Below, in pieces: positions 2 to 31,800 of a stretch of 64,000 nt of DNA (within the stretch, counting starts at the first letter, position 1; each line of letters begins with the position of its first letter). A program made the translations under genes and the position numbers. The DNA is taken from IMG/VR virus record IMGVR_UViG_3300035696_000002. One strand, given 5' to 3'. The notes under the pieces were generated by a model. The model was not told where the DNA came from. It searched no databases and saw nothing but the letters and a program-made list of their open reading frames with translations. The stretch comes from a virus. Taxonomy: Duplodnaviria; Heunggongvirae; Uroviricota; Caudoviricetes.

Positions 2-481
2 GCCCTTCTCTTCACCCATTTCAAGCTCGTGCTTGCCTTCATCGGTGAATGCCTGTTCGGTCGGAGTCGCACCCAGATCAATACCGAGTGCTTCGGCGGC
101 GATTTCCATGGCGGCTGCCTGTTCGTCGAGAGCCTTGTAGGCTTCCTGAAGGGCTGTTTCCAGCATATCAGGCTGCTCTTCGGCGAGCTTCTTCAGGCCA
201 ACGCCGTAGTTCTTGGCAGCGGCAATACGGACGGCTGAGGACGCACCCTTGGGGGCACGAACGAGGTCACAGTGATCCATCAGATTCTCGAAGCCATAAG
301 CCATCTTGTTCGCCGTCACGGCGATAGAACGGAACAGCTTTTCCAGCTTCTCCGGGGCCTTCTGGGCGGTCTGCTGCATCTTGGCATACTTGGAGACCTT
401 CTCGGTCTTCCGTGCCTGCCTACGGGCCGCGATGCGGGCTCGAAGGGCTTCTTGCGGGGTTTTCGTCGTTTTTGCTGCCAT
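2..481 (-). CDS. N-terminal part of a charged, helical head-associated protein (runs off the window)
   Basis: Hand translation from ATG 481 (MAAKTTKTPQEALRARIAARRQARK...) is open to the window edge; GAGGA RBS; late-promoter motif at 491-513. Not in the ORF track. Confidence 0.75.
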   Translation of the reverse strand, partial: MAAKTTKTPQEALRARIAARRQARKTEKVSKYAKMQQTAQKAPEKLEKLFRSIAVTANKMAYGFENLMDHCDLVRAPKGASSAVRIAAAKNYGVGLKKLAEEQPDMLETALQEAYKALDEQAAAMEIAAEALGIDLGATPTEQAFTDEGKHELEMGEEKG

Positions 482-490
482 TTTCCTCAC

Positions 491-513
491 CTCAACTAAA
501 GGATTTGATAGTT
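491..513 (-). promoter_or_regulatory. putative late promoter motif
   Basis: AACTATCAAATCCTTTAGTTGAG matches the motif seen upstream of about 11 virion genes. Confidence 0.55.
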
Positions 514-3500
514 ACTCGGTTTGTGGGGCGTCAACTTGGGACGACCCCTGATTCGGAAGGTGAGGCGGGGTAGTGAAAACCCCAAAATAAATCTCATCTT
601 CATGGTACTGCTGGTGGTACTTATCGTACTGAGCTTCGGCTTCTTCCCGTGTATCGAACACGTTGAACCAAACCTCAACGCCCTCATCCATCAACACGAA
701 CCACTTACCGCTTACATTCGTCGGTTTGTGGTGTGTGATCTCGGCCCCAGTCTTAGACGGCACCGGAGTCGATTCAACCGCACTGCCGATCATAGCTTCC
801 ATCTCATCAGGAGGAATCGGCGTGCCGCCAGTATCTTCGATCCACAGATTGACCATGCCCAACAGGCCACGGCAAACAGCGTTCATGTCTTCCATGTCCA
901 CGCCCGGCTCCGGGAAGGCACCAAAAACCGCCTTACCCTTCGCTGAACTGAACTTGAAATATGGCCCAAGGCCCTCAGCTTCGTTTTGGCTGTTCATTCC
1001 CTCGACGAGGTAGTTGATCGCAAGACGCAATTCCTGCTTGGCCCCCTCCGCTGCTCCGGGGAGTACCGTGTCGAGAATCGTATAGGCGTTGAGCAACTGA
1101 CCGAGGACTTCACTCTGGGCAGTCTTCTGCGAAGACGTGTGCCCCTGATCGCTCAGGAACCCATCGGTCTGCTCTTCCTCACTGATGTCAGGAAGTTTTT
1201 GATCCGGGTGATATCCGTAGAAATCCATCCATTCACGGATGTGGGGCTCTTCCCCACGGCCATCACGAATAGCCTCATCAACCATGTCCTGCATGTAGAC
1301 GTTGCCGTCCGTGGTCAGAGGATTTTCAAGGAACACACCGCACTTATCACAGTGCTGCGGGCCGTCTGCGGCACCGCCGCCGTTCGGGTATGGGCCTTTC
1401 GGGTAATCGTCCGAGTCGAACGTGTGCTCATCAGCCGGATTCGCCGGAGGCTGCAACTGCTTCATGGTCTCACGGGCACATTCGTCGCAGACGAGGGCTG
1501 CCTGATAGATGTATGCCTGCTTGCTCGCGACCTTCGCGACTTCTAGTCCGCCCAAACTTGCCATATAGAACCTCTGATTCGGTAACTCCGGTGGGATGTG
1601 CTTCCTCTCTGGCTGCTTCGGAGGCTCGCCAGCCCCGGAGCCACTTTCCGGGTCTTGCTGATTCAGCAAAATGGAAGTCATCGGCCCCTGTTGCTGCTGT
1701 TGCTGGGCATTTTCTTGCGGAACCGCAGCACCGCCAGCGGGGGCACCGACACCAGATTGGGCGGCTTCCTTCGAGGCTGTTGACGACAACTGATTGTTCT
1801 CCACCTGACTGAAATCCTGACTGTACGGATTCACCGGGTCTTGTGCCTGCGTGTCCGACACCTCGCGATCACTTACTTCGTTGCTCGGATTCCGAGGTGC
1901 AACGTAAGGAGCATTCGGCGAATGTGGGCCGGGCTCGGTCAGATCACTGCCTACACGCACACGTCCAGTCGTATCCGAGTGCATTTCGCGACCCGTATCA
2001 CCCGGCATAGTCTGCGGACGAATGGCGTTGTAGAAATCGTGGCCGAGGTCGCCCTCTTTCAACATGCCGCCCTCAACTTCCTTCCTGTACGCATCCCATT
2101 TCTGATCTTCAGGAACGCCCGGCAGATGTTCTCCGCCGTCCTTGCACGGACGCAGGTTGCACGTTACGCATTCAAGGCAACGCGGGCAGTACAGATGCGT
2201 GCGGTTGGCAATCTCCCAGTCCTCTTCTGCATGCTGAGGCTCTTCAGAGACATCGTCCAAGCCTTCCCAATAGCCTTCGGGCCGCTGCAACTTCAGCCGT
2301 TCAGCTTTTTCTTCAGGACTCTCGTCCGCTTTCTTGGGATAAAGCTTCTCCAACGTCTCGTCGAAATTCTTACTGTAGACCGGGCATTCCATCTTGTGGT
2401 GCCCCGTAACAGAACCGCAGCACGGCAATGCCGGGCCAAGGGAAGTAGCCCGCTTGTCCGAGGTCATTTTAACCTGCCGTTGTGGGTTGTCATCCTGATC
2501 TTGCTGTACCTGTTGCTGACCTTGAGGCGTATTGACTTGCTGCGGGCCTTGCTGATCGACTTGCGGAGCTTGCTGATCGGCGGGGACTGCATCAACTTCG
2601 TCAGTGATGGTCATCTGGTTTTGGGTTGGCGTTTGAGATACCGTTTCGCCCTTACCGGAGAGCAGATTCATCGCTGAAATTCCAGTTGTGACCGCAACGG
2701 AGAGCACAAGCTGCTGGGCAGCGAGTTTCCAGAACGCTCTGAAGCGGTCTGTGCCCTGTTGCTGGGCGTAGCTATCCAATGTCGCAAGGGAAGTAACGCC
2801 CTTCTTCTCCAAAATGGATTCAGCTTTCTGAACGAGCGAGGAGCCGTCGCCAAAATATTCCTGCCACTTATTGCCCAGCCACTTGCCAAGCATCAACACA
2901 ACCCACGACCCAAGGAGGGTTGCAAGCTGCGGATCGAATGCGGCTTTCTTCGGGTGCCGTGATTCAAGCTTCTTGCGTACCGCTTCGCGATCTTCTGATT
3001 CCTCACGCACACCATTGACGTATGCGTAGTACACGGTCTTACCGTCACGCATGAGTTCGCCAATTTCTTCTCGGCGATCATCTGCATACGCCTGCTTGTC
3101 CATGGCGAATAGGTGGTTAATCGAGGCAGCGTGCTGGCCTTTCCACAACGGGAAAGCATGTTGCGGACGCTTCAAACGCCCGTCATTCGTGAAATTGAAT
3201 GCGTAGTTACGAATCCACTCGTCGTCCACGATCATCGGAATGACTGGGTGATTGTGCCCTTCCGCTGCGGCGTCAGCCACGAACGGATTGTTGATGTCAC
3301 AATTCGGGCATTCTTTCCATGTCTCAGCCCGGTGCGGGTTGTCCTTTGTCCACCGACGCGGGAAAGCATCCAATACCTGCTCACGCATCTCTGGTGTGAG
3401 TTCATCACCACGAATAAGGCGAGCGGTCTTCGTACTGCCATTCTTCACGCCTGAGTCCATATCCTGATACGCAGAGAGGTAGGCGTCAAGTGAGGCTGTA

Positions 3501-5788
3501 GAACGGCTCAGATCGTTGCTTCTTGCTTTACCATCAATCAGCGGTGCCCAGAACTCATTCATACCGTGAGTCACGATGATGATCTGAACATCGTTGTACG
3601 GATTTCTCCAAACTTCATCACCACTCGGAGTCGGCTGAGCAGGGTGATACCCATTTTCACCAAGAACCAAACGCCACTCATCAGCGAGAGGCTTGGATGC
3701 CGCCTCTTTTTCCGGCAGATCGGCGAGCATAAGCTCTTCGTGGGTCTTCAAGTTGAAGATCGCAATCTGGTCGTGTTCTTTACCGAGAGCGATGGCGGTG
3801 TCGCGGTCGGCAATTGTCTGAACCACATCGAAGTATGTCTGCCCGGAGTTGGCCCACGTACCGATGCTGCTGGTGGGATCATTCATGGCCGTCTGCACAC
3901 CCTGCGACTCAACGTACTGCTTGACCTGTGCCGGAGCGATCTGTGCCCCATTCTCAATTACCTGAAGGTCTTTGCGAATGCTGACAGACCACATGTCGGT
4001 ACCGTCAAGGTTTCCCATCTTCGGATGGAACGTGGAGCCGCCGTGCTGGTTGTGATACTGGGCAATCTGGGAGTAAAAATCATCCGCCGTCGCAGCGACT
4101 TTCTCCGAAGACAGAATGCGGATGTCCTTGGCAGGCAGATTCGCTTGCGTTGCTTCCAGACACGACTGGCAGTAACGGGTTTTGGTACCGAAAATCTCCA
4201 ACAGGTGGGCGGCAGGATTCATGCAACCACCAGCCTTGTGGCCCAGCGGGCACTTCTCCCACTCACAGGAGCACTGGCCAAGGTTCTGCGGGACACGGTT
4301 TCGATTGAACCACTCGCCGGGCTGCCAATCACGTGTAGCGGGATTCGGATCAGGATCAGCGGCAGTCTTTTCGTCTTCAGTGTGGATCACCATCACGGGC
4401 TCCCACTTCTGATAGTCCTCTTCGTCCTGATTCAAGGCAACATTGCTGCCCTGATTGTGTTCACGGAATTTCTCTGCGTCTTCAGGGGAGAAGAATGCTT
4501 CCTTCGAAGCTCCGTGTTGCTCACGATAAATCTGATCTTCAGTCTTGCGAACGAGGCCCAACTGTTCGGGAGATTTCGGCTTACCACGCTGTGGCATTTT
4601 CGAAATGAGATCGCCCGCTGGTGTGGCTTCTTTTTCAGCAGCAGACAGCGTAATCGGGGCAACCGTTTCCTTGTTAGCCTCGGCAACATCTCCGTCGATA
4701 CCCTCAGCCAAGTGCAGCGAAGACGCACGGGCAGGCACACCCTTCGGCTTGGTCTCGGTCATGTTGCGGACAAGATTGATGAACACGTTGGAATCTTCGT
4801 AGTAGTCGCCGCGTTCACGGACGAACGATGAGATCAGCCCGGCCAAATCGCCGAGATAAGCCTTCAAACTGCCGAGGCTCAGCCCCGTCTCTTTTTCCCA
4901 CTGGGGCAGCATCTCATTCCGCTTGGGCTTAGTACCATGGCTCATGACACTTTCCCAGATCATATCAAACAGGAAGAGATACTGCCCTGCGGTGGTGTAG
5001 GCCTGCTCGTTCTGGCCGTACTTCTTGACTAACCACTTGCCAAAATCTTCTTTGAACTTTTCAACATCGAGATCAGCTTCAACATCCCCAGCCCGGCTCG
5101 GTGTCGCGTACTGCTCGGTCTCAAGAATATTGGTTTCTTCACCTTCGTCAGTGCCCTCATCCTGCATGGACACTTCCTGCTCGGGCTGCATCTTGTTGAT
5201 GTACTCTTGGAAGTCGCCGCGATCACGCATCCAGATGAACGTCTGCCACAGGAAGTGGCTCACCTGACGGGCGAGCGGTTCCTTCTGGACTTTATCGGGG
5301 AATTTCTTGATAGCATTCTGGAAGTTCGCGAGGACGTTGCGGTCTTCGAGGGCCTTGAGAACGCCGAAGTGGATGGCTTCATCCTTCAAATCATCGTCGC
5401 CCTTGAGATGACGACCGATGGTCGAGGCCAGCCAGCTAGACCAATTCATCTTGTCGTCAACAGGGAGCCCGGCCTTTTGGATGTAGCTCTTGACGTAGCG
5501 GTCGAAGTCCTTGTTGTAAGCGACATGGAACCGCATCCACGCCCCGAAGTGGGCCATGGTGACGTTGATTGGGTGGAAGTCGGCGGGAGTCGGAATAGAC
5601 TCCCCCTGTAGATTGGCCAGCTTTACTTTGACCCCAGTGGGGCCGCTGACCATAGATGCGACCCGGTATTTCGTCCCGTCGAGGACGGTGACGATACGCC
5701 CCGGAACGATCAGGTGGGAGAATTTCCTAAAATCCGCCGCCTTGGGCTCAGCGAGTGCGTCGCCCAAAATGTTCGCGGCGTGCTTCAT
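512..5788 (-). CDS. 1758-aa multi-module head/ejection polyprotein with K-x-A linkers (sigma-like, SAM-lyase-like and Zn-binding modules)
   Basis: Long ORF with GGAG RBS; unrelated modules separated by KEAT, KEAF, KTAA, KVAA, KEAA, KTAR, KQAY, KKAA, KRAT, KKAD, KVAS, KTAQ. Confidence 0.8.
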   Translation of the reverse strand: MKHAANILGDALAEPKAADFRKFSHLIVPGRIVTVLDGTKYRVASMVSGPTGVKVKLANLQGESIPTPADFHPINVTMAHFGAWMRFHVAYNKDFDRYVKSYIQKAGLPVDDKMNWSSWLASTIGRHLKGDDDLKDEAIHFGVLKALEDRNVLANFQNAIKKFPDKVQKEPLARQVSHFLWQTFIWMRDRGDFQEYINKMQPEQEVSMQDEGTDEGEETNILETEQYATPSRAGDVEADLDVEKFKEDFGKWLVKKYGQNEQAYTTAGQYLFLFDMIWESVMSHGTKPKRNEMLPQWEKETGLSLGSLKAYLGDLAGLISSFVRERGDYYEDSNVFINLVRNMTETKPKGVPARASSLHLAEGIDGDVAEANKETVAPITLSAAEKEATPAGDLISKMPQRGKPKSPEQLGLVRKTEDQIYREQHGASKEAFFSPEDAEKFREHNQGSNVALNQDEEDYQKWEPVMVIHTEDEKTAADPDPNPATRDWQPGEWFNRNRVPQNLGQCSCEWEKCPLGHKAGGCMNPAAHLLEIFGTKTRYCQSCLEATQANLPAKDIRILSSEKVAATADDFYSQIAQYHNQHGGSTFHPKMGNLDGTDMWSVSIRKDLQVIENGAQIAPAQVKQYVESQGVQTAMNDPTSSIGTWANSGQTYFDVVQTIADRDTAIALGKEHDQIAIFNLKTHEELMLADLPEKEAASKPLADEWRLVLGENGYHPAQPTPSGDEVWRNPYNDVQIIIVTHGMNEFWAPLIDGKARSNDLSRSTASLDAYLSAYQDMDSGVKNGSTKTARLIRGDELTPEMREQVLDAFPRRWTKDNPHRAETWKECPNCDINNPFVADAAAEGHNHPVIPMIVDDEWIRNYAFNFTNDGRLKRPQHAFPLWKGQHAASINHLFAMDKQAYADDRREEIGELMRDGKTVYYAYVNGVREESEDREAVRKKLESRHPKKAAFDPQLATLLGSWVVLMLGKWLGNKWQEYFGDGSSLVQKAESILEKKGVTSLATLDSYAQQQGTDRFRAFWKLAAQQLVLSVAVTTGISAMNLLSGKGETVSQTPTQNQMTITDEVDAVPADQQAPQVDQQGPQQVNTPQGQQQVQQDQDDNPQRQVKMTSDKRATSLGPALPCCGSVTGHHKMECPVYSKNFDETLEKLYPKKADESPEEKAERLKLQRPEGYWEGLDDVSEEPQHAEEDWEIANRTHLYCPRCLECVTCNLRPCKDGGEHLPGVPEDQKWDAYRKEVEGGMLKEGDLGHDFYNAIRPQTMPGDTGREMHSDTTGRVRVGSDLTEPGPHSPNAPYVAPRNPSNEVSDREVSDTQAQDPVNPYSQDFSQVENNQLSSTASKEAAQSGVGAPAGGAAVPQENAQQQQQQGPMTSILLNQQDPESGSGAGEPPKQPERKHIPPELPNQRFYMASLGGLEVAKVASKQAYIYQAALVCDECARETMKQLQPPANPADEHTFDSDDYPKGPYPNGGGAADGPQHCDKCGVFLENPLTTDGNVYMQDMVDEAIRDGRGEEPHIREWMDFYGYHPDQKLPDISEEEQTDGFLSDQGHTSSQKTAQSEVLGQLLNAYTILDTVLPGAAEGAKQELRLAINYLVEGMNSQNEAEGLGPYFKFSSAKGKAVFGAFPEPGVDMEDMNAVCRGLLGMVNLWIEDTGGTPIPPDEMEAMIGSAVESTPVPSKTGAEITHHKPTNVSGKWFVLMDEGVEVWFNVFDTREEAEAQYDKYHQQYHEDEIYFGVFTTPPHLPNQGSSQVDAPQTE

Positions 5789-5797
5789 CGGTCTCCC

Positions 5798-6037
5798 TTA
5801 GTCGGTGATCGGGTCGTTCGGGTTTCCGCCAGACTTTTCGTCTTCGGCCAGAGCGGACTTCAGGGTCTCAAGATACTTGTCGTGATCTTCGAAAGCCTGC
5901 GGATCGTGGGAAATGCCGCCCACTTCTTCCTTGCCGTCCTTGCCTTCAGCAGCAACCTTGCCGCCGAGACGGGAAATTTCACCCGCGTACAGCGAGTTCA
6001 TTGCGTCGTTGTCAACTTGTGCGATCTTCTTAGCCAT
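5798..6037 (-). CDS. small acidic virion-associated protein
   Basis: AGGAG RBS, late motif upstream, KIA and KVAA motifs. Confidence 0.7.
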   Translation of the reverse strand: MAKKIAQVDNDAMNSLYAGEISRLGGKVAAEGKDGKEEVGGISHDPQAFEDHDKYLETLKSALAEDEKSGGNPNDPITD

Positions 6038-6119: not shown

Positions 6120-6845
6120 TTACGTCACCGTGATCGTGACCGCCGAAGACGGAGCGAGCAGCACTTGCCCCGGCCCGTAGGTCGTTAAGGTCAGGGTAAT
6201 CGTGGCTGAAAACCCGTTGCCCACCACGTAAACCCCTGAGCCTGTTGTAGATATGAACCCCGTGTCAAAACCAGAAATGCTGCCGGGCGGAGGCGGCGAT
6301 TGGTAATCCACGTGATTGTTTCCTTGAATGCGAACGAAGGCCACGTTGAGGGTGTCCCAGAGGAGGATCACCGACGCAAACGGGGCCACAGTGAGCGGTA
6401 CAGCCGTCAGAGAGGCCTGTGGCGGCAGGCTGGCGTCGCCGGACGAGGTGTAGCTCGCTATCAGGGCGAAGCCCGGCAAGATTCCGCCGCTGGCGGGCAC
6501 CGTGAGAACCTGTTGAGTGAAACCGGGCGGGTAGTTCTGACTGGTCGCGAAGTTGGCATCTCCGCTATAGATCGCAACCATGGTATGAATCCCCGCCGTC
6601 AAGGAGGAGATTTGGAGTTGAGCCTGCCCGGTGAACCCGGTCAGCCCCACGAGAGGAACCGTGCCGATCAGAACCCCGGTGCCGCCGTCGCTCGGCGGGA
6701 CGCCGTCCCAGAACTCGACCGTGCCAGTCGGCCCGCCCGGAAACGAAGACACCCCGGTAACTGTCGCCGTGAAAACGACATTGTCCTCGAAATTCGAGGG
6801 GGCTTCGCTGCTGGTGAACATCAACGATGTGACGATAAGAGGCAT
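6120..6845 (-). CDS. Ig-like (Big_3-type) domain virion protein
   Basis: VVFTATVTG..PTGTVEFWDG..LTAGIHTMVAIYSGDANFATS is a typical bacterial Ig-like repeat. Confidence 0.75.
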   Translation of the reverse strand: MPLIVTSLMFTSSEAPSNFEDNVVFTATVTGVSSFPGGPTGTVEFWDGVPPSDGGTGVLIGTVPLVGLTGFTGQAQLQISSLTAGIHTMVAIYSGDANFATSQNYPPGFTQQVLTVPASGGILPGFALIASYTSSGDASLPPQASLTAVPLTVAPFASVILLWDTLNVAFVRIQGNNHVDYQSPPPPGSISGFDTGFISTTGSGVYVVGNGFSATITLTLTTYGPGQVLLAPSSAVTITVT

Positions 6846-7478: not shown

Positions 7479-10400
7479 TTAGACTCGGCGACCCCAGTGA
7501 TACTCGATGCTGAGGTTTGTACCGCTCTGTGTGCTCAATGCACCACTCGGCCCGGCCCCTTGGAACAACAGGAAGCCGTAGAACGGGTGGGCCTTGAAGA
7601 AGCTCACGCCACTCGCGGGAGCGGGCACAGGTTCCATGCTCCACCAGCCCAACACAGCCCAATACTGGTTCGTGTTGAATGTCTGAGTGAACGGAGAGAC
7701 CGGGCCTGTCGGATACGACGGGGAGAATGCCATAGTCGAGCCGCCGTCGAGCGACAATGACATGGCGTCCACGGACATACCGATGCACTGCGGATCGAAC
7801 GAGCCTGCCGCTGGCGTAGCGACGGGTGCGGTGCTGCTTCCGAGACGAGCATTGTTGATGGTGGTCTGGGAACCGTAATCAAACAGATACACCGGGCCGA
7901 AAGCTGCGGTTGAAAACACAGTGCCGCCGCCTGCGTTGAAAGGCGTGGTGCTGTAGTTGTACCCCTGCTGCACAGTAATGCGGAGGTTCGTGATGCCCAC
8001 CTGACGGGCGAACGTGTAAGCGTAGCCCATGTGTGCACGCCAGAGCGGAGTGATTTGTGTGTAAGAGATGCCGCCGTTGGTGCTCACCTCGAACTTGTAG
8101 CCACGCGACATATTCGCGTTTATGAGGTAGTATGGTGCATCCGAAGACTGACCGCCAACCTGAGAACCGAAGTTCATGAAGCACAGGTCAGAGAAGTTAA
8201 ATGTTGACTGACGTGAGCCGCTGTAGAATTGGAGCATACCCAGAGACGGGGTGTTACCGCCGCTGGCTTGCGTAATGCTCAACTGAATCCAGCGGAAGCT
8301 GCCCGGCGTGCTCGCCGTGAAGGCAACGCCGCGTTTGAAGGCGGAGAATCCCGTTTGCGAGTCGATGGTTGTGAACGGCCCGGACGCACTGGTGTTCGAA
8401 CCTTGCAGCACCCACGTTACAGGTGCCCCGGACACAGTGTTGGACGAGTCGTAGAACAGACGGAAGCTGTATCCGCTGATGAGCGTAGCGGCACCCAGAT
8501 CAATCGTGAGCGAGCCAGTGTTGCCCGCGTTCGACTTCCAGAACCGCTGAGCACTGCCTGCGAATGCCTGCCAGTTTGGGAATCCTGCCTGATCGCCGCT
8601 CGATGTGATGTTCGGGCTGGACGCGGTGTACGGTGTGTACACGTTCGTTGTCGGATCGAAGTTGTTTGCCGTGATGACCATCTGCAACGCAGTTGCATCA
8701 TACGGGTAGTTACCAGTGTCCAGCTTCGGCCACGTGACCTGTGTGTTCCACCCGGTAAGAGGCGTTGTCAACGGTGCAGTCTGTGGCGTCGGGTTGATCG
8801 AAGTTGGAGCCGTAAATGCCACGTTGGACTGATCGGTATCCACGAAGTAGAGCCCAACTGCATTTTGCTCTGCCACAGTGCGGGCGTCAGTCTGGAGGAA
8901 CGTCTGTCCAGCAAACATTGACCACGCGAAACGTGACTTACGGGCGAACTTCGTGTTGCCCCAGCACAGATTGAATGTGAAGAATTCGCTGTTGCCGATG
9001 CTGATGTCGTTTGCCGTTCCAGTGTCGGCAGCCGGGCCGTAACCGCCGTTGTAGTACGCAACGGTCGCGGTGAACTGATTAGTTGAAGCCGAGGCCAGAG
9101 TAACCGTCAACCCATTCAAGAAGGTCGCCGTCGTGAGACCGGACAGGGTGACCTTGTCTCCGGGGTTGAAGTTGTTCGTCGTGGTCAACACGGTAAGGGT
9201 GTTGCCAGAGATCGAAACGTTCGTGATCGTCGCCTTGCTACCCTGACTCGTCCAAGTATCACTGCTATTCGGGCCGAACTGTACCTGCAACCCGTAAGGC
9301 AGCGGGACGTTTGTGTTTGCGGACGGGATGGAGATCGGGTTGTTGAAAGCATCGGCGAAATTGTCCGCCATCTTCCACATGACCTCTGCGGTACCGCTGT
9401 TCGCTGTAGGCCCGTAGTTCGGGTAAGTGAGCTTCGCTGCGAACTGTGCACCGCTCAGACCAGCCGAAAGGACGGTCACGGTCATGCCATTCAGGAACGT
9501 GGCATTCGAGACGCCAGAGAATGTCACATGATCGCCCGCACTGAATGTGTTGGTCGCCTGTACGGTGAGGACGTTCCCAGCAATCTGGATGCTGGTGATC
9601 GACGCGGAGTTACCCACCCATTTGTGGTAGGTCGGCAACCATGCAAAACTCTGAGCACACAGACCGTACAGCGAGTTCCCATTTGGCAGATTTTGCGGTG
9701 GGCTCGTGAGGCCGCTGGTGATGCGGATAAAGTGCATGTAGTTGTCCAGCGTCATAACTGGATACGTCCAGTTCTGAGCGGCGTCGTTGCCGATGAAGCG
9801 GCTGCCGAGATCGCCTTCAGTCCAGCAATCCTTACCAAACGAATTGATGGTGACTCCTGCCATGCTGTTGAGATGCATCAACTGAAGTGTGTTCGGGGCT
9901 CCCCACGTGTACCCCGGTGCCGCCTGATAAAGCGGGGAGTCGCCGAACAGCGTGTACGTTTTGTGGACGTAGAACATGGTACGATCAGCGTTTGTCGCAA
10001 AGTCTTTTGCATGCGTGATCGACACTGGCTCATACGCCGGGTTCGAACTGTTGGTAACGAACGTGTCGCTGCCAGTCCAACCGCTGCCGCCGCCGTAGCT
10101 CCAGAGCGTGGAGGCCGGAACTGGTGTCAAGTTGGCATTGGACGTACCAAGGGTCGTTCCGCTGATGTCCAGAACCCACAAGTTGCCAGCCGTCCAGTTG
10201 CCTTGGATGAGCAGCTTGTTCGTTGCCACATCATGCATGAAAGCGTTGGGCATGTAGAACCAGAAATCCTTGAGGTTGTTGAAGCCCGTCTGTCCAGTGT
10301 TGGTGCCGTACTGGATACCCTGCGTCAAAGTGCCGCTCTGGCTAACTGGGCCATAGGTCGAGTTGTACGAAGGAATCGTCGCCGTGATCTGTGATGTTGA

Positions 10401-12806
10401 AGAGGTCAGGACGGTGATGAGTTGACCGTCGAGTTCTGTGTGACCGCCAAGCTGCGTGTTCATGTTAATCATCAACACAGCACCAACCGGGAACTGAGTC
10501 GTCAATGTCGGCGAGAAAGTAATCGTCAGGTTGCTACCAGCCGACTGAATCGTGCTGATGTACGCAGTGTTCGGTGAAGCATCCGGCGTCGTGACGGCGT
10601 CGATTTGAGCGGAGTTCCATGTCGGCCCGGTCGGATCAAGCAAGCCAACCTGCCAACGGATGTTCGGCAGTACGGTCGCTGTCGGCGTCCCGGAGGGGGT
10701 CAGGATATTCGTGACATTCGGGTTCGTGTAGCTGACTTCTTCAACGCAAACAGCCAGACGGCCATCGCGAAGCACAATCAGTTCGTGCAAAGAACGCCCA
10801 TTGTGGCGTGCCTGATTCGGCATGAAGCTCATGGTGCCGAGAGTCTGCCAAGTCTGCGTCCCGATGTTGTAGGAGATGACACCCACACGCGGAGCCACAG
10901 CACCCGTTACCGTCGTAAGACGCGGATCAGGCGACACTGTGCCATAAATGGCATAGAGCGTGGAGCCATCGGCACTCAGTTTCATCGCACCGTAGCACTC
11001 CCAAGTGTGAGCCGGAGTGGGGGCGTTGAAACCGACCAGTGAGATCGCACCGTTAAGCTGGGTGAAATCGTAAATCGCAAGGATGCCATCTTCCGAAAGG
11101 AAGTAAATCTGGTAACCGCCGCATTCACCAGTATCCGGCGTAGAAGCGTAATCCGCATGAGTGAACGAAGCCGTGAATTGCAGCGGTGTGGCTGTCTGCA
11201 CAGTCAAGGTCTGACCGTTCAGGAATGTGGCACTGGTCAAATTCTGGATGTAGATGTTCTGACCATTCTGGTAGTTGTTGTTGGCTGTGATAGTCACGAC
11301 GTTGCTGGTCAGCGAAACGTTCGTGATAATTCCCTGATTGACGCCGGAGACCGCCACGCCAGCGATACGTGGGCGAACAGAGGCAGACCAAGTGTCTGCA
11401 AGATCGAAGAACACCAGCGGCAACATGGAAGACTTGTTCGACCAGATTGAGCATTTCGTATCCGATACGAGACCGTAGTACTCTTCGTTGATCGTGAACG
11501 TAGCTGCCTGACGGATGCGGATGTCAGGATTGAGGCTGGCCACGGCACCGCTCGTAGACTCCGGCGACGATGAGTAGTTTGAAGCCGTCCAGTTCGCCTC
11601 GAATTGCAGGCCAGACAACCCGGTGGACAGGACAGTCAACACCTGTCCGTTGTACTCCGAGTGGTTCTGGAACCCGTTCATGATGACCTGATCCCCGGCT
11701 GCCAGTGTGTTCACGCACACGAATGTCGCGACGTTGCTGGTGACACTCGTCGCAGTAACCGTGAAGTCCTGACCACGCTGCCAGAGGTATTGGGTCTGCA
11801 CATTGACGGGCAGAACTGGTTCTTCTGTGATCCCGTCCTCTTCGTAGCGATACGGGAAGGCATTCCAACCGTTGTCGAACACCTTGGCGAGGTGCATCGT
11901 CAAACCACGACTGTTGAGCTTGCGGACACCAGTGACTTGGAAATACTCCTGTGAGTTGCTGGTGGGAGAACTTGCAGACGCTCCCTTCAATGGATCGGTT
12001 GTGTACGGCCCACCCGAGGCCGGGTTGCCGTTCATGTACGAAGTGGCGACATCATTGCCGCTGTCGATCATGGAGTTGTTGTCGTTGAATCCGGCAGCAC
12101 GCAATGATGGACGCTCTTCAAAGAAGAATTTGGTGTTGCCCGAACCAAGAGTCGAAGAGCCGACCGGGAAATTCGCACAGTACAGGTGGTGATAGACAGG
12201 CGGCATGTACGGCGTGCGGGTGAAGGCTGACGCAGAATTCGTTGCTGTCAAGCTGGCATCAGACAGCGGGTTGCTGGAATCGCGGAACTGCCGGGCAAGA
12301 CCGGAATCCGGGAAAGTCTGATTGACCAACTCAGGCCATGTGTATCCTGTGCCGTGTCCGTACAGCGGTTCATAATCCACAGCGAGGGTGTTGATGTCGA
12401 AAACGTAATCGAACTGCTCACAGCCGCCGACAAAGCTGCCGTAGTAGCCATCACGAGCCACAACCGGGTTCGTCACAGGCGGGATCGTATTGTCAGTGAA
12501 CCACACGCCACGAAGGAAGTATCCACCGTTCGGACGCCACGGGAGCGGGTTGCTCGGCCCAGTGCTCTGGTTGTACCCGTTATCCTGACCATAGGAGCCA
12601 ATGAACGTGTTATTCGAGGACTGGGTGAGGGCGGCATTCTGCCACATACCAAAGATGCGGGTGTAGCGGGCAAGCTGGCCGTTCAGGTTGTCGGGCTGCA
12701 ACGGGTATTCCGACACGTAAGCTCCGGCCTTACGAGTAGCGTCAGAGCCCGAGTTGAACATCATCTTGCCGTTGATGGTGCCGATTTGAAATACGTTAAC
12801 AGCCAT
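7479..12806 (-). CDS. 1775-aa tail fibre/baseplate receptor-binding-like protein with five internal ~70-aa repeats and a discoidin-like domain
   Basis: S/T/N/G-rich beta content; repeats of ITNVS..NV.T....N.F..GD.V...G...ATFLNG...TV....QF.A; LTIDLGAATLISGY..PVTWVLQGSN..FRWIQLSIT resembles an F5/8 discoidin. Confidence 0.75.
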   Translation of the reverse strand: MAVNVFQIGTINGKMMFNSGSDATRKAGAYVSEYPLQPDNLNGQLARYTRIFGMWQNAALTQSSNNTFIGSYGQDNGYNQSTGPSNPLPWRPNGGYFLRGVWFTDNTIPPVTNPVVARDGYYGSFVGGCEQFDYVFDINTLAVDYEPLYGHGTGYTWPELVNQTFPDSGLARQFRDSSNPLSDASLTATNSASAFTRTPYMPPVYHHLYCANFPVGSSTLGSGNTKFFFEERPSLRAAGFNDNNSMIDSGNDVATSYMNGNPASGGPYTTDPLKGASASSPTSNSQEYFQVTGVRKLNSRGLTMHLAKVFDNGWNAFPYRYEEDGITEEPVLPVNVQTQYLWQRGQDFTVTATSVTSNVATFVCVNTLAAGDQVIMNGFQNHSEYNGQVLTVLSTGLSGLQFEANWTASNYSSSPESTSGAVASLNPDIRIRQAATFTINEEYYGLVSDTKCSIWSNKSSMLPLVFFDLADTWSASVRPRIAGVAVSGVNQGIITNVSLTSNVVTITANNNYQNGQNIYIQNLTSATFLNGQTLTVQTATPLQFTASFTHADYASTPDTGECGGYQIYFLSEDGILAIYDFTQLNGAISLVGFNAPTPAHTWECYGAMKLSADGSTLYAIYGTVSPDPRLTTVTGAVAPRVGVISYNIGTQTWQTLGTMSFMPNQARHNGRSLHELIVLRDGRLAVCVEEVSYTNPNVTNILTPSGTPTATVLPNIRWQVGLLDPTGPTWNSAQIDAVTTPDASPNTAYISTIQSAGSNLTITFSPTLTTQFPVGAVLMINMNTQLGGHTELDGQLITVLTSSTSQITATIPSYNSTYGPVSQSGTLTQGIQYGTNTGQTGFNNLKDFWFYMPNAFMHDVATNKLLIQGNWTAGNLWVLDISGTTLGTSNANLTPVPASTLWSYGGGSGWTGSDTFVTNSSNPAYEPVSITHAKDFATNADRTMFYVHKTYTLFGDSPLYQAAPGYTWGAPNTLQLMHLNSMAGVTINSFGKDCWTEGDLGSRFIGNDAAQNWTYPVMTLDNYMHFIRITSGLTSPPQNLPNGNSLYGLCAQSFAWLPTYHKWVGNSASITSIQIAGNVLTVQATNTFSAGDHVTFSGVSNATFLNGMTVTVLSAGLSGAQFAAKLTYPNYGPTANSGTAEVMWKMADNFADAFNNPISIPSANTNVPLPYGLQVQFGPNSSDTWTSQGSKATITNVSISGNTLTVLTTTNNFNPGDKVTLSGLTTATFLNGLTVTLASASTNQFTATVAYYNGGYGPAADTGTANDISIGNSEFFTFNLCWGNTKFARKSRFAWSMFAGQTFLQTDARTVAEQNAVGLYFVDTDQSNVAFTAPTSINPTPQTAPLTTPLTGWNTQVTWPKLDTGNYPYDATALQMVITANNFDPTTNVYTPYTASSPNITSSGDQAGFPNWQAFAGSAQRFWKSNAGNTGSLTIDLGAATLISGYSFRLFYDSSNTVSGAPVTWVLQGSNTSASGPFTTIDSQTGFSAFKRGVAFTASTPGSFRWIQLSITQASGGNTPSLGMLQFYSGSRQSTFNFSDLCFMNFGSQVGGQSSDAPYYLINANMSRGYKFEVSTNGGISYTQITPLWRAHMGYAYTFARQVGITNLRITVQQGYNYSTTPFNAGGGTVFSTAAFGPVYLFDYGSQTTINNARLGSSTAPVATPAAGSFDPQCIGMSVDAMSLSLDGGSTMAFSPSYPTGPVSPFTQTFNTNQYWAVLGWWSMEPVPAPASGVSFFKAHPFYGFLLFQGAGPSGALSTQSGTNLSIEYHWGRRV

Positions 12807-13491: not shown

Positions 13492-14745
13492 TTACTCCAA
13501 CTGGGCCGTCGCAGACATGCTGCCATAATAGTTACTCGGCCCGGCACCGAACGGAATGTTGATCGGGACTTCTGATACGGCTTCCGCAATAAATTCCTGC
13601 CGCGACTCGACCGTACCGTAAGCCATTGTGCCGATAGGGTGATCGCCGAATCGTCCTATAGTAGAGACGGGAAAACCGATTGTGTCAGATGGCGATTCAA
13701 CCACGAATTCCTGCCGGGGATCGAGGTTGACAAAGGCCATGTCACTCTCAAACTTAAGTGTAAGTGGTTCATTTACTTGGAACTGATAGCTCGGGTGCTC
13801 CACGGTCGAATCCACCGTGACCACGTAGAAGCCGGGGATGCCCTCGGCATGCAAGACCGGGTTGAACGGGGCACTGGGGCTGTACAGGTCGCCCCACGTC
13901 GCCGTGTACTGATACCGGAACGGTGAGGTCGCCAAAGCACTGTCCGTGTACGAGAACGTTGTCGGCACCCAATCCTGAAGCAGAATCCATGGCAGCGTCC
14001 CAATCGCCCGGCGATACAGCCGGAAATAAGCCGTGTAGTTGGGATTCAGAAGGAACGGCACCCAGCTTGGGTCTAACGAGATGGTGACCGAGTACGTGTT
14101 CGTCGTTGCGTCGATGAACAACAGGCCGCGATCAATCAGCGGCGGGTTGAAGTAGTCGTTCACCGATCCATCTGTGTTGCCGCCCTTCAGGTTGAGCGTG
14201 ATGGCATCTGCCATGAACGAGAACTGGGTCGTAAATGACGCCACATGGCCACGATCAACCCAAACGATCTGAGTGTTGCCTGTGCCATCCGTCGTCGTAC
14301 CGCCGCTATCATTCCACGTCGGCATAATCGAGCCGGAGACGCCGCCGTTACCGCCCGGTGCTCCTGTGCCGCCAGCCTGCTGGAGGTGATGAGCCGGATC
14401 AACGATCTGCGATCCTGTCGGATAAAATGTGGTTGGCTGCCACTGATTGCTCGTGTTCGGCCCACCCGAGGATGCGTTGCCAATCGGGTTGACAACGGTC
14501 GGAGGCCACGTGCTGATGTCAACGATGCGGCACGTGAGGTGCGACAGGAAATCAAACGTCAGAATGAACTGGTTCGGCGGATTGTACTGTTGAATGGACG
14601 GACGAGAGCCCGGCCCGACGAAGTACCACACGCCATCGTCAGTCTCCGAAGGAATACCCGGAGTGTGATCGTCGATGGCTTGCGACAATCGAGTGATGTA
14701 AATCTGCCCGTTGATTTCTTTTGACGCACAAAGGTACTGTGACAT
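13492..14745 (-). CDS. tail-associated protein with a carbohydrate-binding-like insert
   Basis: WQPTTFYPTGSQIVDP..GVSGSIMPTW..TTTDG..IVW is a short Trp-containing module common in phage fibres. Confidence 0.6.
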   Translation of the reverse strand: MSQYLCASKEINGQIYITRLSQAIDDHTPGIPSETDDGVWYFVGPGSRPSIQQYNPPNQFILTFDFLSHLTCRIVDISTWPPTVVNPIGNASSGGPNTSNQWQPTTFYPTGSQIVDPAHHLQQAGGTGAPGGNGGVSGSIMPTWNDSGGTTTDGTGNTQIVWVDRGHVASFTTQFSFMADAITLNLKGGNTDGSVNDYFNPPLIDRGLLFIDATTNTYSVTISLDPSWVPFLLNPNYTAYFRLYRRAIGTLPWILLQDWVPTTFSYTDSALATSPFRYQYTATWGDLYSPSAPFNPVLHAEGIPGFYVVTVDSTVEHPSYQFQVNEPLTLKFESDMAFVNLDPRQEFVVESPSDTIGFPVSTIGRFGDHPIGTMAYGTVESRQEFIAEAVSEVPINIPFGAGPSNYYGSMSATAQLE

Positions 14746-16976: not shown

Positions 16977-17936
16977 TTAGTTCTCGCCGTAGTTGGCGGC
17001 AGCGTTGAAGCGACCGTTGACCGTGAGACGCTGAACACCTGACGGGTTGAAGATCAGGAAGCCCAGAATTTCGAAGATGCTGAAACCGATCTGACGGAGG
17101 TCAGGACGGTCGGCAGACATGACGGTGAGCGGCACACGTTCCGGGATAACACCGAGGAATTCGGCGTCCGCCAGAATGTAGATCGAGCCGTAGCCGACCT
17201 TACGAGACTGGAGGAGCGTCGCACCCCACAAGTACCCCATCACGCCCGTTTTCAACAGCTTACGCTGGGTTTCGCGGTCGATGTTCTGCTGAGTCCACTT
17301 CAGCAAATCCGTGTAATCACGGGGATTGAAGAAGACGAACGCGACAGACAAGTCGTGACGCTGAACCTGCCCAAAGCCATCGGCCATCGAGTTGATGTCG
17401 ATAGGAGCATTGATCGGAATGTCCGGGTTGTAGACCGGATCGTTGGAGGCGTGCGTTGCAGCCGAGGATGCAACCGCGTCGAACAGGGAGAAGACGTATC
17501 CGTCCTCAGCCGCACCGACTTCGGCTTTCGCCAAATTCAGTGAACGAGCAACGAGGTCGAAACGACGTTCCTTGATCTGCGTGATCGGAATCATCGGGTT
17601 GGACACGATTTCGAAAGTCGGAACCGTGACACGCTTTGGTTTGGTGACGCGGACGATGTCGCCGCCTTCTTCACCCACGACGAAGGCTTCCACGAAGGAC
17701 GAGCCGGGGGTCGAGCCCACGGTCATTGCCGACGTGTCAAATTCCTTATCGTAGATGGGCAGGGCACCATCAGGTAGGGTTTCGACCATCAATGCCTTGC
17801 GGGCAATCGACATATAGTCGCGGCGACGACGGAGCGAAGGCCCCAACGAAGCGGCGAGCTTCTGACGACCACCAGCGGTCTTGAGCAACTGCCCAAGCAT
17901 CGCGGTCTGCTGTTGTGTACGTGAAAGGTTTGCCAT
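16977..17936 (-). CDS. major capsid protein (HK97-like fold)
   Basis: Start reassigned to ATG 17936 (AGGAG RBS); LMVETLPDGALPIYDKE..RVTVPTFEIVSNPMIPITQIKERRFDLV..GYLWGA; follows protease, scaffold and decoration genes; strong terminator. Confidence 0.85.
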   Translation of the reverse strand: MANLSRTQQQTAMLGQLLKTAGGRQKLAASLGPSLRRRRDYMSIARKALMVETLPDGALPIYDKEFDTSAMTVGSTPGSSFVEAFVVGEEGGDIVRVTKPKRVTVPTFEIVSNPMIPITQIKERRFDLVARSLNLAKAEVGAAEDGYVFSLFDAVASSAATHASNDPVYNPDIPINAPIDINSMADGFGQVQRHDLSVAFVFFNPRDYTDLLKWTQQNIDRETQRKLLKTGVMGYLWGATLLQSRKVGYGSIYILADAEFLGVIPERVPLTVMSADRPDLRQIGFSIFEILGFLIFNPSGVQRLTVNGRFNAAANYGEN

Positions 17937-28837: not shown

Positions 28838-31800
28838 TTACAAAGTTGTCGTGACCGTGAAGACCACGCTCAGGTACAGCAAGCTGAAGATCGGCTTGTA
28901 CGTGACCGTGACATCCACAGTTGTCGGATCAGTCGGATCAGGAACGACTGCCAAGTTCTGGTAGCCAGAGATGATCTGGTTGTCCAACAGGGCTTGCAGT
29001 CGAGCGTTGCACACCAACGTGATGTCCGTGATGAGGCTGTCCACGATCTTGCGACCGATGAACTGTGCCAAGTCAGCACGGAAAGCCTGAGCGGTGAAGT
29101 CCGCGATTGTCGTGCAAGTCGGCTCACTCGTGATCGGGTTCGACGGGTCAGTGGACTTGTAGTGACGAACCAGCAACGAACCACTGTTGTTCTTCAGGCA
29201 GATCAAACCATCGGCTGCCATCTGATCCATCGTCGGGTCATCATAAGTGATGAGCAGGCGGCTGAATCCAACAAGGTTTTGATTGGTCAGAGTCGTTGCC
29301 ACGTCGTTGGCCGGGTTGAATTCCAGACCACACAGGGCAGCGGCCATGAACGGGCCGTCAACCGGGTACTCTACGGTGACACCAGTCTGGCTGTCGGTAA
29401 CTTCGACACCAGCCAGCGGCATACCGATAGCGAGCATACGGCTGTTGTGCAGTGCACGTGCATTCGCACGGGCGATTGCCGGAGTCGTGAACTGATCGTA
29501 GCCGACGAAACCGATTGCCTCACCCTTGTTGCGGATGGTCGCCTGAGTAATCAACTGATTGCTCAAGAACTGGTGGACGGTCGGGCTCGTGCTCAACGGG
29601 ATGATACCGTTGGCCTTGTTCGTGCTGCCCGGCAGAGCCACTGTGAGCGACTGGATGGCTGCGATGTAATCAGCATCCGAAGCCAAGTTGGAACCCGGCT
29701 GTTGCGGAACCTGAATTGCACCGAAGGTCTGGACGCCGTTCTGAACCATGAACTGGATACCCAGCGACAGACGGTTGATCGTGCTCGGAGCCCCGTAGGC
29801 TGCGTAAGCGTCGGTCGGATTGGTGTAGATGTGAATCGCCAAGTCCGAAGCCTGCTTCTCAGTCTGGAACGAGACATAGTAGAACTCGCCAACGCTCGGG
29901 TTGTTACCCGACTTGTTGAACGTGCTCACGATGACCGAGTCGCCAGTCGTCGAACCGAAGTTCGAGACCACCGAGAATTTCAGACCGCCGATGCAGACGA
30001 GCGTGTTGGCCTGCGAAGGAGCAACGCCCGGCGAACCGCAGTTGCGGATAGCCGCGTTTGCACCCGTTGCGTCAGCCTTCACGATGTACTGAAGGGTGTC
30101 GCCCGGAGCGAAGGCATAGTTGCCGCCTGCGGGTAATGACTGACCGCCGAAGGCCGGATTCGAAGCATCAGCCGGGTTGACAATCGTGACGCGGAATCCA
30201 GTCGCAACGTCGATGTAGGTCTGGTCGAGGTAGCCAACATTGCTGCCCTGCGAACCGGAACCCTTCGAGTTGGTCGAGGAAACCGTGTAGCTGTGAGTGA
30301 CCGGAACCGTGACCGCGTTGGTGCCGCCAGCGAGATTCGTTGCTGCGGTGACCTGCGGGTTGCCAGCCGTGAAAGTTGCCGTGATCTGACCACCATCCGG
30401 TGTTTCACCGGAGGGGAAGAATCCAGCGATCTGGGCGTTCGTGTTGAGCGAACCATTCCAGAAGGCATAGATCGTGATCTGATCGCCGTTGACAACGACC
30501 GGGATCGGGTTCTGTGTAGTCACGTCGATTGCAACCGAGACATGGTTGCCGCCAGTGCCCGGCGTTGACGCGGTGAACGTCAGTGTGCCGCTGGAACCGG
30601 GGACGGTGACCGTCGCCTGAGATGCAGGAACAAGAACGTTGTTGCCGTCGTGGTTGAAGGTCAGTGTGACCGTCTCATCGACTGCTGCACCAGCCTGAGC
30701 CTGTGCATCACCAGTCTGGAGCGGGTTACCAGCGGAGAAGACGAACGGGTAAACAACGCCCGTGATCGCGAAAGCCGCCGAGGCCGCAACCGTGTTGGTG
30801 CCGCCGATGACGAGCGGGGCCACGCGGCCAAGTTCGTCTGCGACGGTGAAGGTGCCTGCACCCGCATAACCGGGGCTGACAACCGTGACCGAGTACTGAT
30901 GGTCGGTCAGATTGTTGCCGTAGTAAGATGCCCACACGCCGTTGCCGGACGCGGGCGGGTTGTACAGGGTGACCTGCTGTGTGTTTCCGTTGAGACGGGC
31001 GACACGCACCGGGCCAGCGAGGAAAGCTTCCAGCGGATCGGAGCCGACGTAAACATTGATGAGGCTCGGGTCATCGGTTGTGACCGACAGACCGCTGCCA
31101 TCAACAGGCGTGTCTTCCAGAGCGAAGACCGTGTTCTTGCCGTTTACCGCACCCGTGACCGGGCGGAGGTAAAGGTGCTCATCCACCAGCGTGGCGAGAA
31201 CTTCTGCCGGGGTGAAGTTGGCGGATTCTCCGGCTGCGGAGACGCCAATCGCTTCGCTGACCGAAGCACCCCAGTTGATCGTTCCGTTGCCGTCTGCATC
31301 GACGCCAAGGACGTAATCAGTTCCCTGAATGTAGTCCTGACGGTTCGGGCCGAGACCGACCTGAGTGATCGAGGAGACGTGCGATGCCGGAAGCAGATCG
31401 AACGTGTTCTTCCACGTGTTGAAGTAGTATGAAATTGTGAGCGAGATCGCGTTCGCCGGGACAGGCTGAGCCAGAGTGACGAGACCATTCTGTCCATCGA
31501 CTGCGAGGACGCCGACCGGGCTGCCGTTCAGTTGAACGAGCACGTTTGCCGGGTTTGTGGTTGTGACGCCGCCGTTCGTACCATCAGTGATCGGGGCATG
31601 CTTGACTGCGAACACGGTGTTGCTGCTCGGGCCAGAACCGCCAGCCAGAGGAACTGCACCACCAGCAACCAGTGCGGTTGAAGCCACACCCGTGATACCG
31701 CTCACTGTCAGGTAACCCGCATCCAACGTCGGGATACCCGCGTTGATGAGGTTCACGAGGTCTTGCAGGGTACGTGTTGCCGGGCCGGGCTTCGTGATGT

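Follow-up and report, generated by a model that had tools for sequence, protein, structure and literature searches.

Packaged polyvalent proteins and protease-processed ejection proteins have both already been published. Polyvalent proteins hold 2-15 distinct domains per polypeptide and are mosaic among relatives (Iyer, Burroughs, Anand, de Souza and Aravind, 2017; PMC5512222, which also mentions DarB and MuF). Among processed head proteins, the substrates of T4 gp21 include internal proteins, Alt, gp22 and gp23, and those of phiKZ/SPN3US gp175/gp245 include ejection and inner-body proteins, with multiple cuts per protein documented in SPN3US (PMC10052503). Here we analyze an open reading frame (ORF 512-5788) in a 64,000-nucleotide window, by which we mean the whole stretch of viral DNA examined (IMG/VR record IMGVR_UViG_3300035696_000002; nucleotides 175,749-239,748 on one contig of 463,033 bp). 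What differs here from the published systems is a Lys-x-Ala (K-x-A) motif, a prohead protease proposed to act on it, and a constant N-terminal domain (N-domain) followed by a string of 0 to ~1700 residues of small modules, or cassettes. From the sequence, we give roughly an even chance to the reading that the product of ORF 512-5788 is a head-cargo precursor in a jumbo myophage resembling phage G and Tunturi_5, which is cut at K-x-A and whose pieces are injected; the K-x-A motifs taken by themselves are probably cut sites of the capsid-maturation protease.

Like polyvalent proteins, the ORF 512-5788 product joins many unrelated domains in one chain, is encoded among virion genes and is shuffled between relatives, and for polyvalent proteins, as we propose here, packaging and delivery with the DNA have been predicted and processing into separate units proposed (PMC5512222). 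Unlike them, it has no catalogued conflict domain (MPTase, ART, methylase, helicase, SNF2, ParB or BECR) among its Pfam, NCBIfam and PHROG matches; it has no in-chain peptidase, cutting by the prohead protease at a short linear motif being proposed instead; and its family is defined by the constant N-domain. With T4, phiKZ and SPN3US it has in common, judged by sequence alone, a short P3-x-P1 motif found in capsid, scaffold, protease and internal proteins. Unlike in those phages, the motif is Lys-x-Ala rather than [L/I]-x-Glu or [S/A/G]-x-Glu, and the protease has no detectable membership in their Pfam families; unlike in T4, no short targeting leader was recognized. For the known substrates, processing mostly removes an N-terminal propeptide; in the present chain it would separate an entire series of independent cassettes.

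Herpesvirus assemblin cuts at [V/L/I]-x-Ala↓Ser (arrow, cut), and the sites considered here have the same spacing, Ala at P1 and a small P1′ residue, with an invariant Ala-Ser at the C-terminal site of the protease, but Lys at P3 where the herpesvirus sites are hydrophobic. In the MuF polymorphic toxins of temperate phages and the Dar proteins of phage P1, a constant capsid-associated N-terminal domain precedes variable C-terminal cargo. ORF 512-5788 likewise has a constant N-domain ahead of variable cargo, and a neighboring K-x-A-rich protein of Tunturi_5 is annotated DarB-like; unlike those proteins, it has no MuF or Dar homology and carries many cassettes per chain, not one toxin. The literature that we searched contained no mention of a Lys-x-Ala prohead-protease motif.

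The ORF divides as follows:

512-5788, minus strand: whole ORF (protein P0001), 1758 amino acids (aa), N-domain plus cargo cassettes (translation)
4739-5788, minus strand: conserved N-domain, ~residues 1-350, the constant part of the family (database homology)
515-4633, minus strand: variable cargo region, residues 386-1758, with 16 K-x-A (motif map and block order in relatives)

The N-domain is common to 16 large database proteins and 36 viral loci, at 30-41% identity. Behind it, relatives carry shuffled cassettes over a length of 0 to ~1700 aa. The complete ORFs of the family are between 439 and 2109 aa long, those in L103-L107 have 1968 residues, and members without any cargo exist. At least eight separable blocks were found in ORF 512-5788, with order and presence varying in P0002-P0018 and the 36 loci; compared with P0002, for example, residues 1426-1529 correspond to 1314-1421, 498-607 to 627-737, and 386-412 to 1426-1452. 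Because blocks are reordered, and because two of them equal whole stand-alone phage proteins, the modules are real, independently evolving cassettes. The ORF is thus modular, a constant N-domain plus cassettes shuffled between relatives, which agrees with the claim of an earlier note, made from the letters of the window, that it is built from unrelated segments. Searches of the whole ORF against Pfam and NCBIfam returned no family match, and PHROG matches were limited to two function-less PHROGs. Among the cassettes are:

4103-4291, minus strand: Cys-rich zinc-ribbon-like cassette, residues 500-562 (blocks elsewhere in P0002, P0006 and P0010), with KVA 563 after it
3728-4090, minus strand: small-phage-protein cassette, residues 567-687 (phrog_17808), bounded by KVA 563 and KEA 694
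3083-3457, minus strand: CxxC and His-rich cassette, residues 778-902 (homologous blocks and AlphaFold)
2489-3079, minus strand: beta domain/hydrophobic helices/disordered tail cassette, residues 904-1100 (homologues P0009, P0023, P0042 and P0051)
2321-2479, minus strand: small Cys/His cassette, residues 1104-1156, bounded by KRA 1112 and KKA 1152
1202-1522, minus strand: double-CxxC cassette, residues 1423-1529 (a stand-alone viral protein family with hundreds of members)

Residues 570-679 cover positions 8-120 of the 137-position phrog_17808 (E 7.8e-9), and the 567-687 cassette also occurs in P0056, P0096 and P0144. The 778-902 cassette is present at varying positions in at least 15 other large proteins; AlphaFold models its residues 790-880 with a predicted local distance difference test (pLDDT) score of 80-97, placing KTA 787 at the N edge and KQA 898 in the following linker. 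For the 904-1100 cassette the model gives, in order, a small beta domain, two hydrophobic helices and a Gln/Pro-rich disordered tail, with KKA 947 in a low-confidence linker and KLA 1021 within a helix. These two strongly hydrophobic helices (~residues 950-975 and 1020-1050; 2640-2950, minus strand), which precede the ~60-residue disordered stretch, may serve membrane insertion. The 1104-1156 cassette occupies other positions in P0002, P0003, P0004, P0006, P0010 and P0014.

The double-CxxC cassette likewise equals a whole free-standing protein: the alignment of more than 100 viral proteins (~100-250 aa) to it begins with residue 2-3 of each at residue 1424/1425. One of them is gene 117 of Erythrobacter phage XM05 (132 aa), which lies within a row of small genes. 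The stand-alone proteins begin M-[DN]-[AV]-Y-I-Y-Q-A-A-L where ORF 512-5788 has K-Q-A-Y-I-Y-Q-A-A-L. The Lys of K-Q-A 1423-1425 (1514-1522, minus strand) aligns with the initiator Met of this M-x-A-Y-I-Y-Q family, as if the ATG of a captured gene had become AAG and thereby created the motif; other relatives instead have a K-K-A ~19 residues upstream of the cassette. No names are on record for the stand-alone cassette relatives, and no cassette paralogues were found elsewhere in the 463-kb genome at E<=1e-3.

The K-x-A motifs of the cargo region, each given as its span from the K to the A, are:

4625-4633, minus strand: KEAT 386
4496-4504, minus strand: KEAF 429
4361-4369, minus strand: KTAA 474
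4094-4102, minus strand: KVAA 563
3701-3709, minus strand: KEAA 694
3422-3430, minus strand: KTAR 787
3089-3097, minus strand: KQAY 898
2942-2950, minus strand: KKAA 947
2939-2947, minus strand: K-x-A 948, beyond the earlier note's list
2720-2728, minus strand: KLA 1021, beyond the earlier note's list
2447-2455, minus strand: KRAT 1112
2327-2335, minus strand: KKAD 1152
1763-1771, minus strand: KEAA 1340
1526-1534, minus strand: KVAS 1419
1514-1522, minus strand: KQAY 1423
1118-1126, minus strand: KTAQ 1555

Three further K-x-A lie in the N-domain, at residues 2, 16 and 56 (P0001 begins with M-K-H-A, K-A-A follows at 16-18, and the consensus for the family reads MKxAA..PKxA). All 14 motifs that had been listed under a count of about 15 were therefore present in the same order, together with five more (2, 16, 56, 948 and 1021). 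The total of 19 exceeds the 8.8 expected (p=0.0008 by whole-protein shuffling), and K-x-A is the most enriched among 400 XxY patterns in the protein. When shuffling was confined to blocks of 10-30 aa the excess persisted (p ~0.001-0.002), which rules out local composition as its cause; the enrichment thus holds against a composition-matched background in both forms. Near-variants were not enriched, with KA at 0.97-fold, KxxxA at 0.8-fold, AxK at 1.17-fold, RxA at 1.04-fold and KxS at 0.88-fold of expectation. Lys and Ala codons at the sites are used as elsewhere in the ORF, which points to selection on the protein, not the DNA, and a junction signal at the DNA level was ruled out.

The earlier note had also placed the motifs at transitions between segments. 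We defined a border as a point where homology blocks from at least two relatives start or stop, and tested residues 331-1600. Twelve of the 16 K-x-A in this range lie <=10 aa from a recurring border, compared with 5.4 for random placement (p=0.0009) and 6.2 for other Lys residues (p=0.0005). We also overlaid the motifs on domain boundaries predicted by AlphaFold for residues 760-1165, the input being an alignment of 27 fragments that had been checked. Confident domains span ~790-880, 910-945, 953-1035 and ~1130 onward, and five of the six motifs (787, 898, 947, 1112 and 1152) fall at domain edges or in low-confidence linkers, leaving only 1021 inside a helix. (A larger alignment, A2, of residues 380-1579 with 93 fragments had most fragments misplaced and was not used for folding; searches with the 760-1165 model, VIA-wide and in the ESM-Atlas, returned only a generic helical hairpin or TM<0.3.) Across 14 family members, K-x-A sites are poorer in surrounding order-promoting residues than other Lys residues (p=9e-5). 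Together, these computations support K-x-A as a mark of cassette joints, as had been claimed.

The same motif distinguishes the head region of the genome. Among 639 ORFs called over the whole 463-kb contig, the five most K-x-A-enriched all lie among the head genes, at 163.8-200.9 kb: ORF 512-5788, a 751-aa and a 1057-aa protein, and, a short way beyond the window, two proteins of 1545 and 619 aa. These five total 105 K-x-A where 48 are expected, and all other ORFs 596 where 549 are expected. The K-x-A-rich head-region proteins are Lys-rich (6-9.5%). Tail and sheath proteins are almost Lys-free (0/241, 1.5%, 0.7% and 1.5% at 6120-6845, 7479-12806, 13492-14745 and 28838-32482, all minus strand), and the same split is seen in Tunturi_5, where gp343 is without Lys.

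The excess recurs in relatives. In P0002, P0012, P0014 and P0103, each taken independently, K-x-A is the top pattern of 1200. In a pooled cargo sample of 31 non-redundant family members (25,059 aa) it occurs 282 times where 141 are expected (z=11.9), second only to CxxC among 1200 patterns, with a logo of S-S-[S/K]-K-T-A-A; KA, KxxxA, AK, AxK, RxA, KxS and KxG were all near expectation, and the N-domains of the pooled members showed no K-x-A enrichment. Over 80 related loci, the ratio of observed to expected K-x-A was highest in the protease (2.96), followed by the scaffold-like protein (1.8) and by the upstream polyprotein and the capsid protein (1.7 each); other proteins had 1.17. An excess is also seen in phage G gp19 (8 versus 2.4) and gp21 (7 versus 2.8), in Tunturi_5 gp328, gp332 and gp348, and in mycobacteriophage I3 gp103 (L124:8872-13098), a 1408-aa protease fusion in which K-x-A is the top pattern (18 versus 8.1). 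In cluster C mycobacteriophages, a cultured system, the homologous protease forms the N-terminal part of such a 1408-aa protein. The protease relatives in more distant Erwinia jumbo phages showed no K-x-A excess, so the rule does not cover every relative.

A motif at joints need not be a cut site. The chain could instead be an uncut multi-domain virion or polyvalent protein, in which K-x-A is a linker feature inherited with the cassettes or favored for flexibility; polyvalent proteins are often delivered whole, as with N4 vRNAP and ArdC (PMC5512222), and the motifs do lie in Ser/Ala/Lys-rich linkers. We consider this unlikely, though worth serious attention. Shuffles that preserve local composition fail to reproduce the excess, and KA, KxxxA, AxK and RxA are not enriched. 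In addition, the motif occurs outside cassette linkers, at the protease termini, in the scaffold-like protein and near the capsid N-terminus. These three proteins and a second multi-module one are:

21002-21919, minus strand: prohead (head-maturation) protease, 305 aa (phrog_18299, E 5.6e-16)
18747-21002, minus strand: scaffold-like protein (by position, between the protease and capsid genes), 751 aa, 9.5% Lys
21943-25116, minus strand: second K-x-A-rich multi-module protein (1057 aa), immediately upstream of the protease
16977-17936, minus strand: major capsid protein, 319 aa from ATG (phrog_2522, E 9e-43)

The protease is 56% identical to Tunturi_5 gp331, and its gene is flanked on one side by that of a large internal protein and on the other by those of the scaffold-like and capsid proteins. 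It contains six K-x-A where 2.3 are expected. In an alignment of 28 sequences its catalytic core is almost invariant and its termini are variable, yet three K-x-A toward the N-terminus and one at the C-terminus are retained, as would be expected if these sites served self-processing. The N-terminal motif, F-K-K-x-A-N-A, has an invariant Lys, and a K-x-A comes again 30-45 residues in; at the C-terminal site, K-x-A-S, the Ala-Ser is invariant and the Lys is not. (Residues ~171-194 of the protease, encoded at 21300-21450 on the minus strand, form an invariant C-x2-C ... C-x-H zinc-ribbon-like insertion beside an invariant L-S-M-G-C motif, with weak Pfam zinc-ribbon matches in 16 of the 28 members.) The 751-aa scaffold-like protein, for which PHROG and Pfam searches gave no family match, has 24 K-x-A where 12.3 are expected, about one per 31 aa, and its homologues in 74 loci have 1236 where 685 are expected. 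The 1057-aa protein has 17 versus 7.5 and carries a GNAT domain (PF00583, E 1.8e-5). The capsid protein (true start MANLSR), which shares 69.5% identity with its Tunturi_5 counterpart and 34% with phage G gp27, contains K-T-A (19-21) and K-L-A (26-28). The earlier note's assertion that the motif is dense in the scaffold, at both protease ends and near the capsid N-terminus is thus borne out.

In a relative, a cut has been mapped at the position that aligns with one of these sites. Hua et al. (2017, PMC5646251) report, on the basis of N-terminal sequencing, that maturation shortens the capsid protein of phage G from 282 to 255 residues, or 31.2 to 28.2 kDa. Removal of 27 residues reproduces both figures and therefore places the cut after Ala27, in G-R-V-A-L-A↓Q-A-M, a stretch that aligns column by column with G-R-Q-K-L-A↓A-S-L of the capsid protein here (arrow in the latter, corresponding position). 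By analogy, the phage G cut gives an experimental anchor for cleavage after the aligned Ala, and it is a further point against a chain that is left whole.

Under the head-cargo reading, the N-domain (~350 aa) might carry the chain into the prohead or might have a function of its own, and behind it come ~ten unrelated small cassettes, many of them zinc-ribbon-like, which are gained, lost and reordered between related phages. Inside the prohead, the protease encoded at 21002-21919 would cut after the Ala of K-x-A, and would treat its own two ends, the N-terminus of the capsid protein, the scaffold-like protein of 751 aa and a further three large proteins rich in Lys in the same way. The products would be the N-domain, at ~350-385 aa, and a dozen pieces of 40-200 aa, and the freed pieces would remain with the DNA and exit with it at infection. 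Packaging, cleavage, retention, injection and a host function of the ORF 512-5788 product are what we infer from these patterns: the sequence pattern is well supported, the protease-site system moderately so, and injection of the cargo is what we hypothesize. More tentatively, and with distinctly less than an even chance, this would be a general 'address plus joint' system of phage G, Tunturi_5, Bixzunavirus relatives and ~100 soil contigs, in which a small gene placed behind the N-domain and flanked by K-x-A would be packaged, cut free and injected. In that case, the protease family may have a previously undescribed Lys-x-Ala↓small specificity, and one late gene may act as an evolvable magazine of pre-made host-takeover or anti-defense proteins.

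The AlphaFold model of the N-domain (pLDDT 71.8) consists of a small beta unit together with two helical lobes, between which runs an acidic, disordered linker (residues 204-233), and neither Foldseek searches of PDB and BFVD nor a VIA-wide search returned a significant fold match. Weak sigma-factor matches fall in the correct order across the linker, sigma-2 at residues 91-203 and sigma-4 at 232-340, with VIA Z of 4.3-5.4 and Foldseek E of 0.06-0.6 (0.06-0.2 for BFVD phage sigma factors), which is weaker than what helical bundles attain by chance.

Cleavage at K-x-A would not by itself imply delivery. The protein could be scaffold- or core-like filler for head assembly that is cut for clearance, as scaffolds are, its pieces leaving before or during DNA packaging and none being injected. 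The 751-aa scaffold-like protein does have the densest motifs, SPN3US propeptides are removed by multiple cuts (PMC10052503), and family members without cargo imply that cargo is dispensable. We nevertheless find clearance the more doubtful alternative, because the cassettes are predicted to be folded domains, with pLDDT up to 97, some are the same in kind as stand-alone small genes of hundreds of other phages, unlike filler, and the motifs avoid domain interiors, such that cutting would free the domains intact.

Alternatively, K-x-A could be recognized by another factor, such as a Lys-modifying enzyme, for which the GNAT module of the adjacent K-x-A-rich 1057-aa protein is a candidate, or a host protease; that the invariant residues are Lys and a small residue would fit. 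We think this very improbable, given that the motif occurs in the classic prohead-protease substrate set of protease termini, scaffold and capsid N-terminus, that the phage G capsid is cut exactly after the aligned Ala, and that at the C-terminal site of the protease it is Ala-Ser, not Lys, that is invariant. Chance or compositional bias without function deserves next to no credence: the excess in the one protein is only two-fold and the pattern was picked after the sequence had been viewed, but K-x-A ranks first among patterns in several independent relatives, reaches the pooled z of 11.9, is restricted genome-wide to five head-region ORFs and coincides with module borders.

Several observations do weigh against the head-cargo reading. 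With enrichment of only about two-fold, about half of the motifs could be chance, and K-x-A 1021 lies inside a helix and K-x-A 56, in the N-domain, in a beta strand. The counts across relatives share ancestry and are not phylogenetically independent. Comparison of N-termini revealed no common targeting leader among the K-x-A-rich proteins. ORF 512-5788 lies ~15 kb from the protease gene, after tail-fiber genes. The protease has no Pfam match at E<=0.01, and sequence comparison assigned it to no MEROPS or Pfam peptidase family, those of T4 gp21, HK97 gp4 and phiKZ gp175 (S77/S78/S80) included; its 28-sequence profile matched no PDB sequence, and a single member of the 28 touches Peptidase_S78_2, weakly (E 0.14). 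The phage G site has Ala rather than Lys at P3, which shows that Lys is not obligatory there, and the stretch that holds the capsid K-x-A sites is conserved throughout; Lys may thus be dispensable. No cassette matched a known function, which makes 'effector' a guess, and the Tunturi_5 label 'virion structural protein' is computational.

The genomic setting is that of a late gene in a large soil phage. One strand of the window carries tail sheath, head-maturation protease, major capsid protein, helicase and NAMPT, which identifies a jumbo myophage, and ORF 512-5788 shares its strand with the sheath, protease, capsid, tail and terminase genes. Its position is syntenic in Tunturiibacter phage Tunturi_5 (309 kb) and in IMG/VR contigs, and the surrounding gene order matches Tunturi_5; at least 80 IMG/VR contigs, up to 455 kb, have a protease 57-79% identical to the one here. 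Directly downstream of the ORF is a conserved partner:

2-481, minus strand: conserved partner gene, 392 aa, running off the window start to genome position 175051

This gene follows the N-domain family gene in nearly all related loci, and in Tunturi_5 gp345 (L001:37636-39639) and the three IMG/VR loci L119-L121 it is fused to the N-domain as one ORF of 635-667 aa. Cargo cassettes therefore occupy the exact junction where two conserved partners otherwise join. Read-through from ORF 512-5788 into the in-frame downstream ORF was ruled out: a TAA stop is followed by that ORF's own Shine-Dalgarno sequence and ATG.

Two further observations concern neighboring genes. A 79-aa ORF at 5798-6037 (minus strand), just upstream of ORF 512-5788, starts M-A-K-K-I-A and contains three K-x-A where 0.9 are expected. 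Outside the window, the 1545-aa ORF and a following 677-aa ORF (genome 161824-168503, minus strand; L007:5825-12504) match one Tunturi_5 protein, the DarB-like gp350, over its N-terminal 270 aa and C-terminal 250 aa, so that the gene has either been split in two or become much enlarged in its middle.

If the head-cargo reading is true, it would provide a cleavage rule, namely cutting behind the Ala of Lys-x-Ala, for capsid-maturation proteases of a large and unstudied family with members in cultured phages (phage G, Tunturi_5 and cluster C mycobacteriophages), and head-internal proteins of the phage G/Tunturi_5 clade would become predictable from sequence. It would also define a route by which jumbo phages could send small proteins, in a varying assortment, into the host along with the DNA, and hundreds of small stand-alone phage families would then be likely factors for the first minutes of infection.

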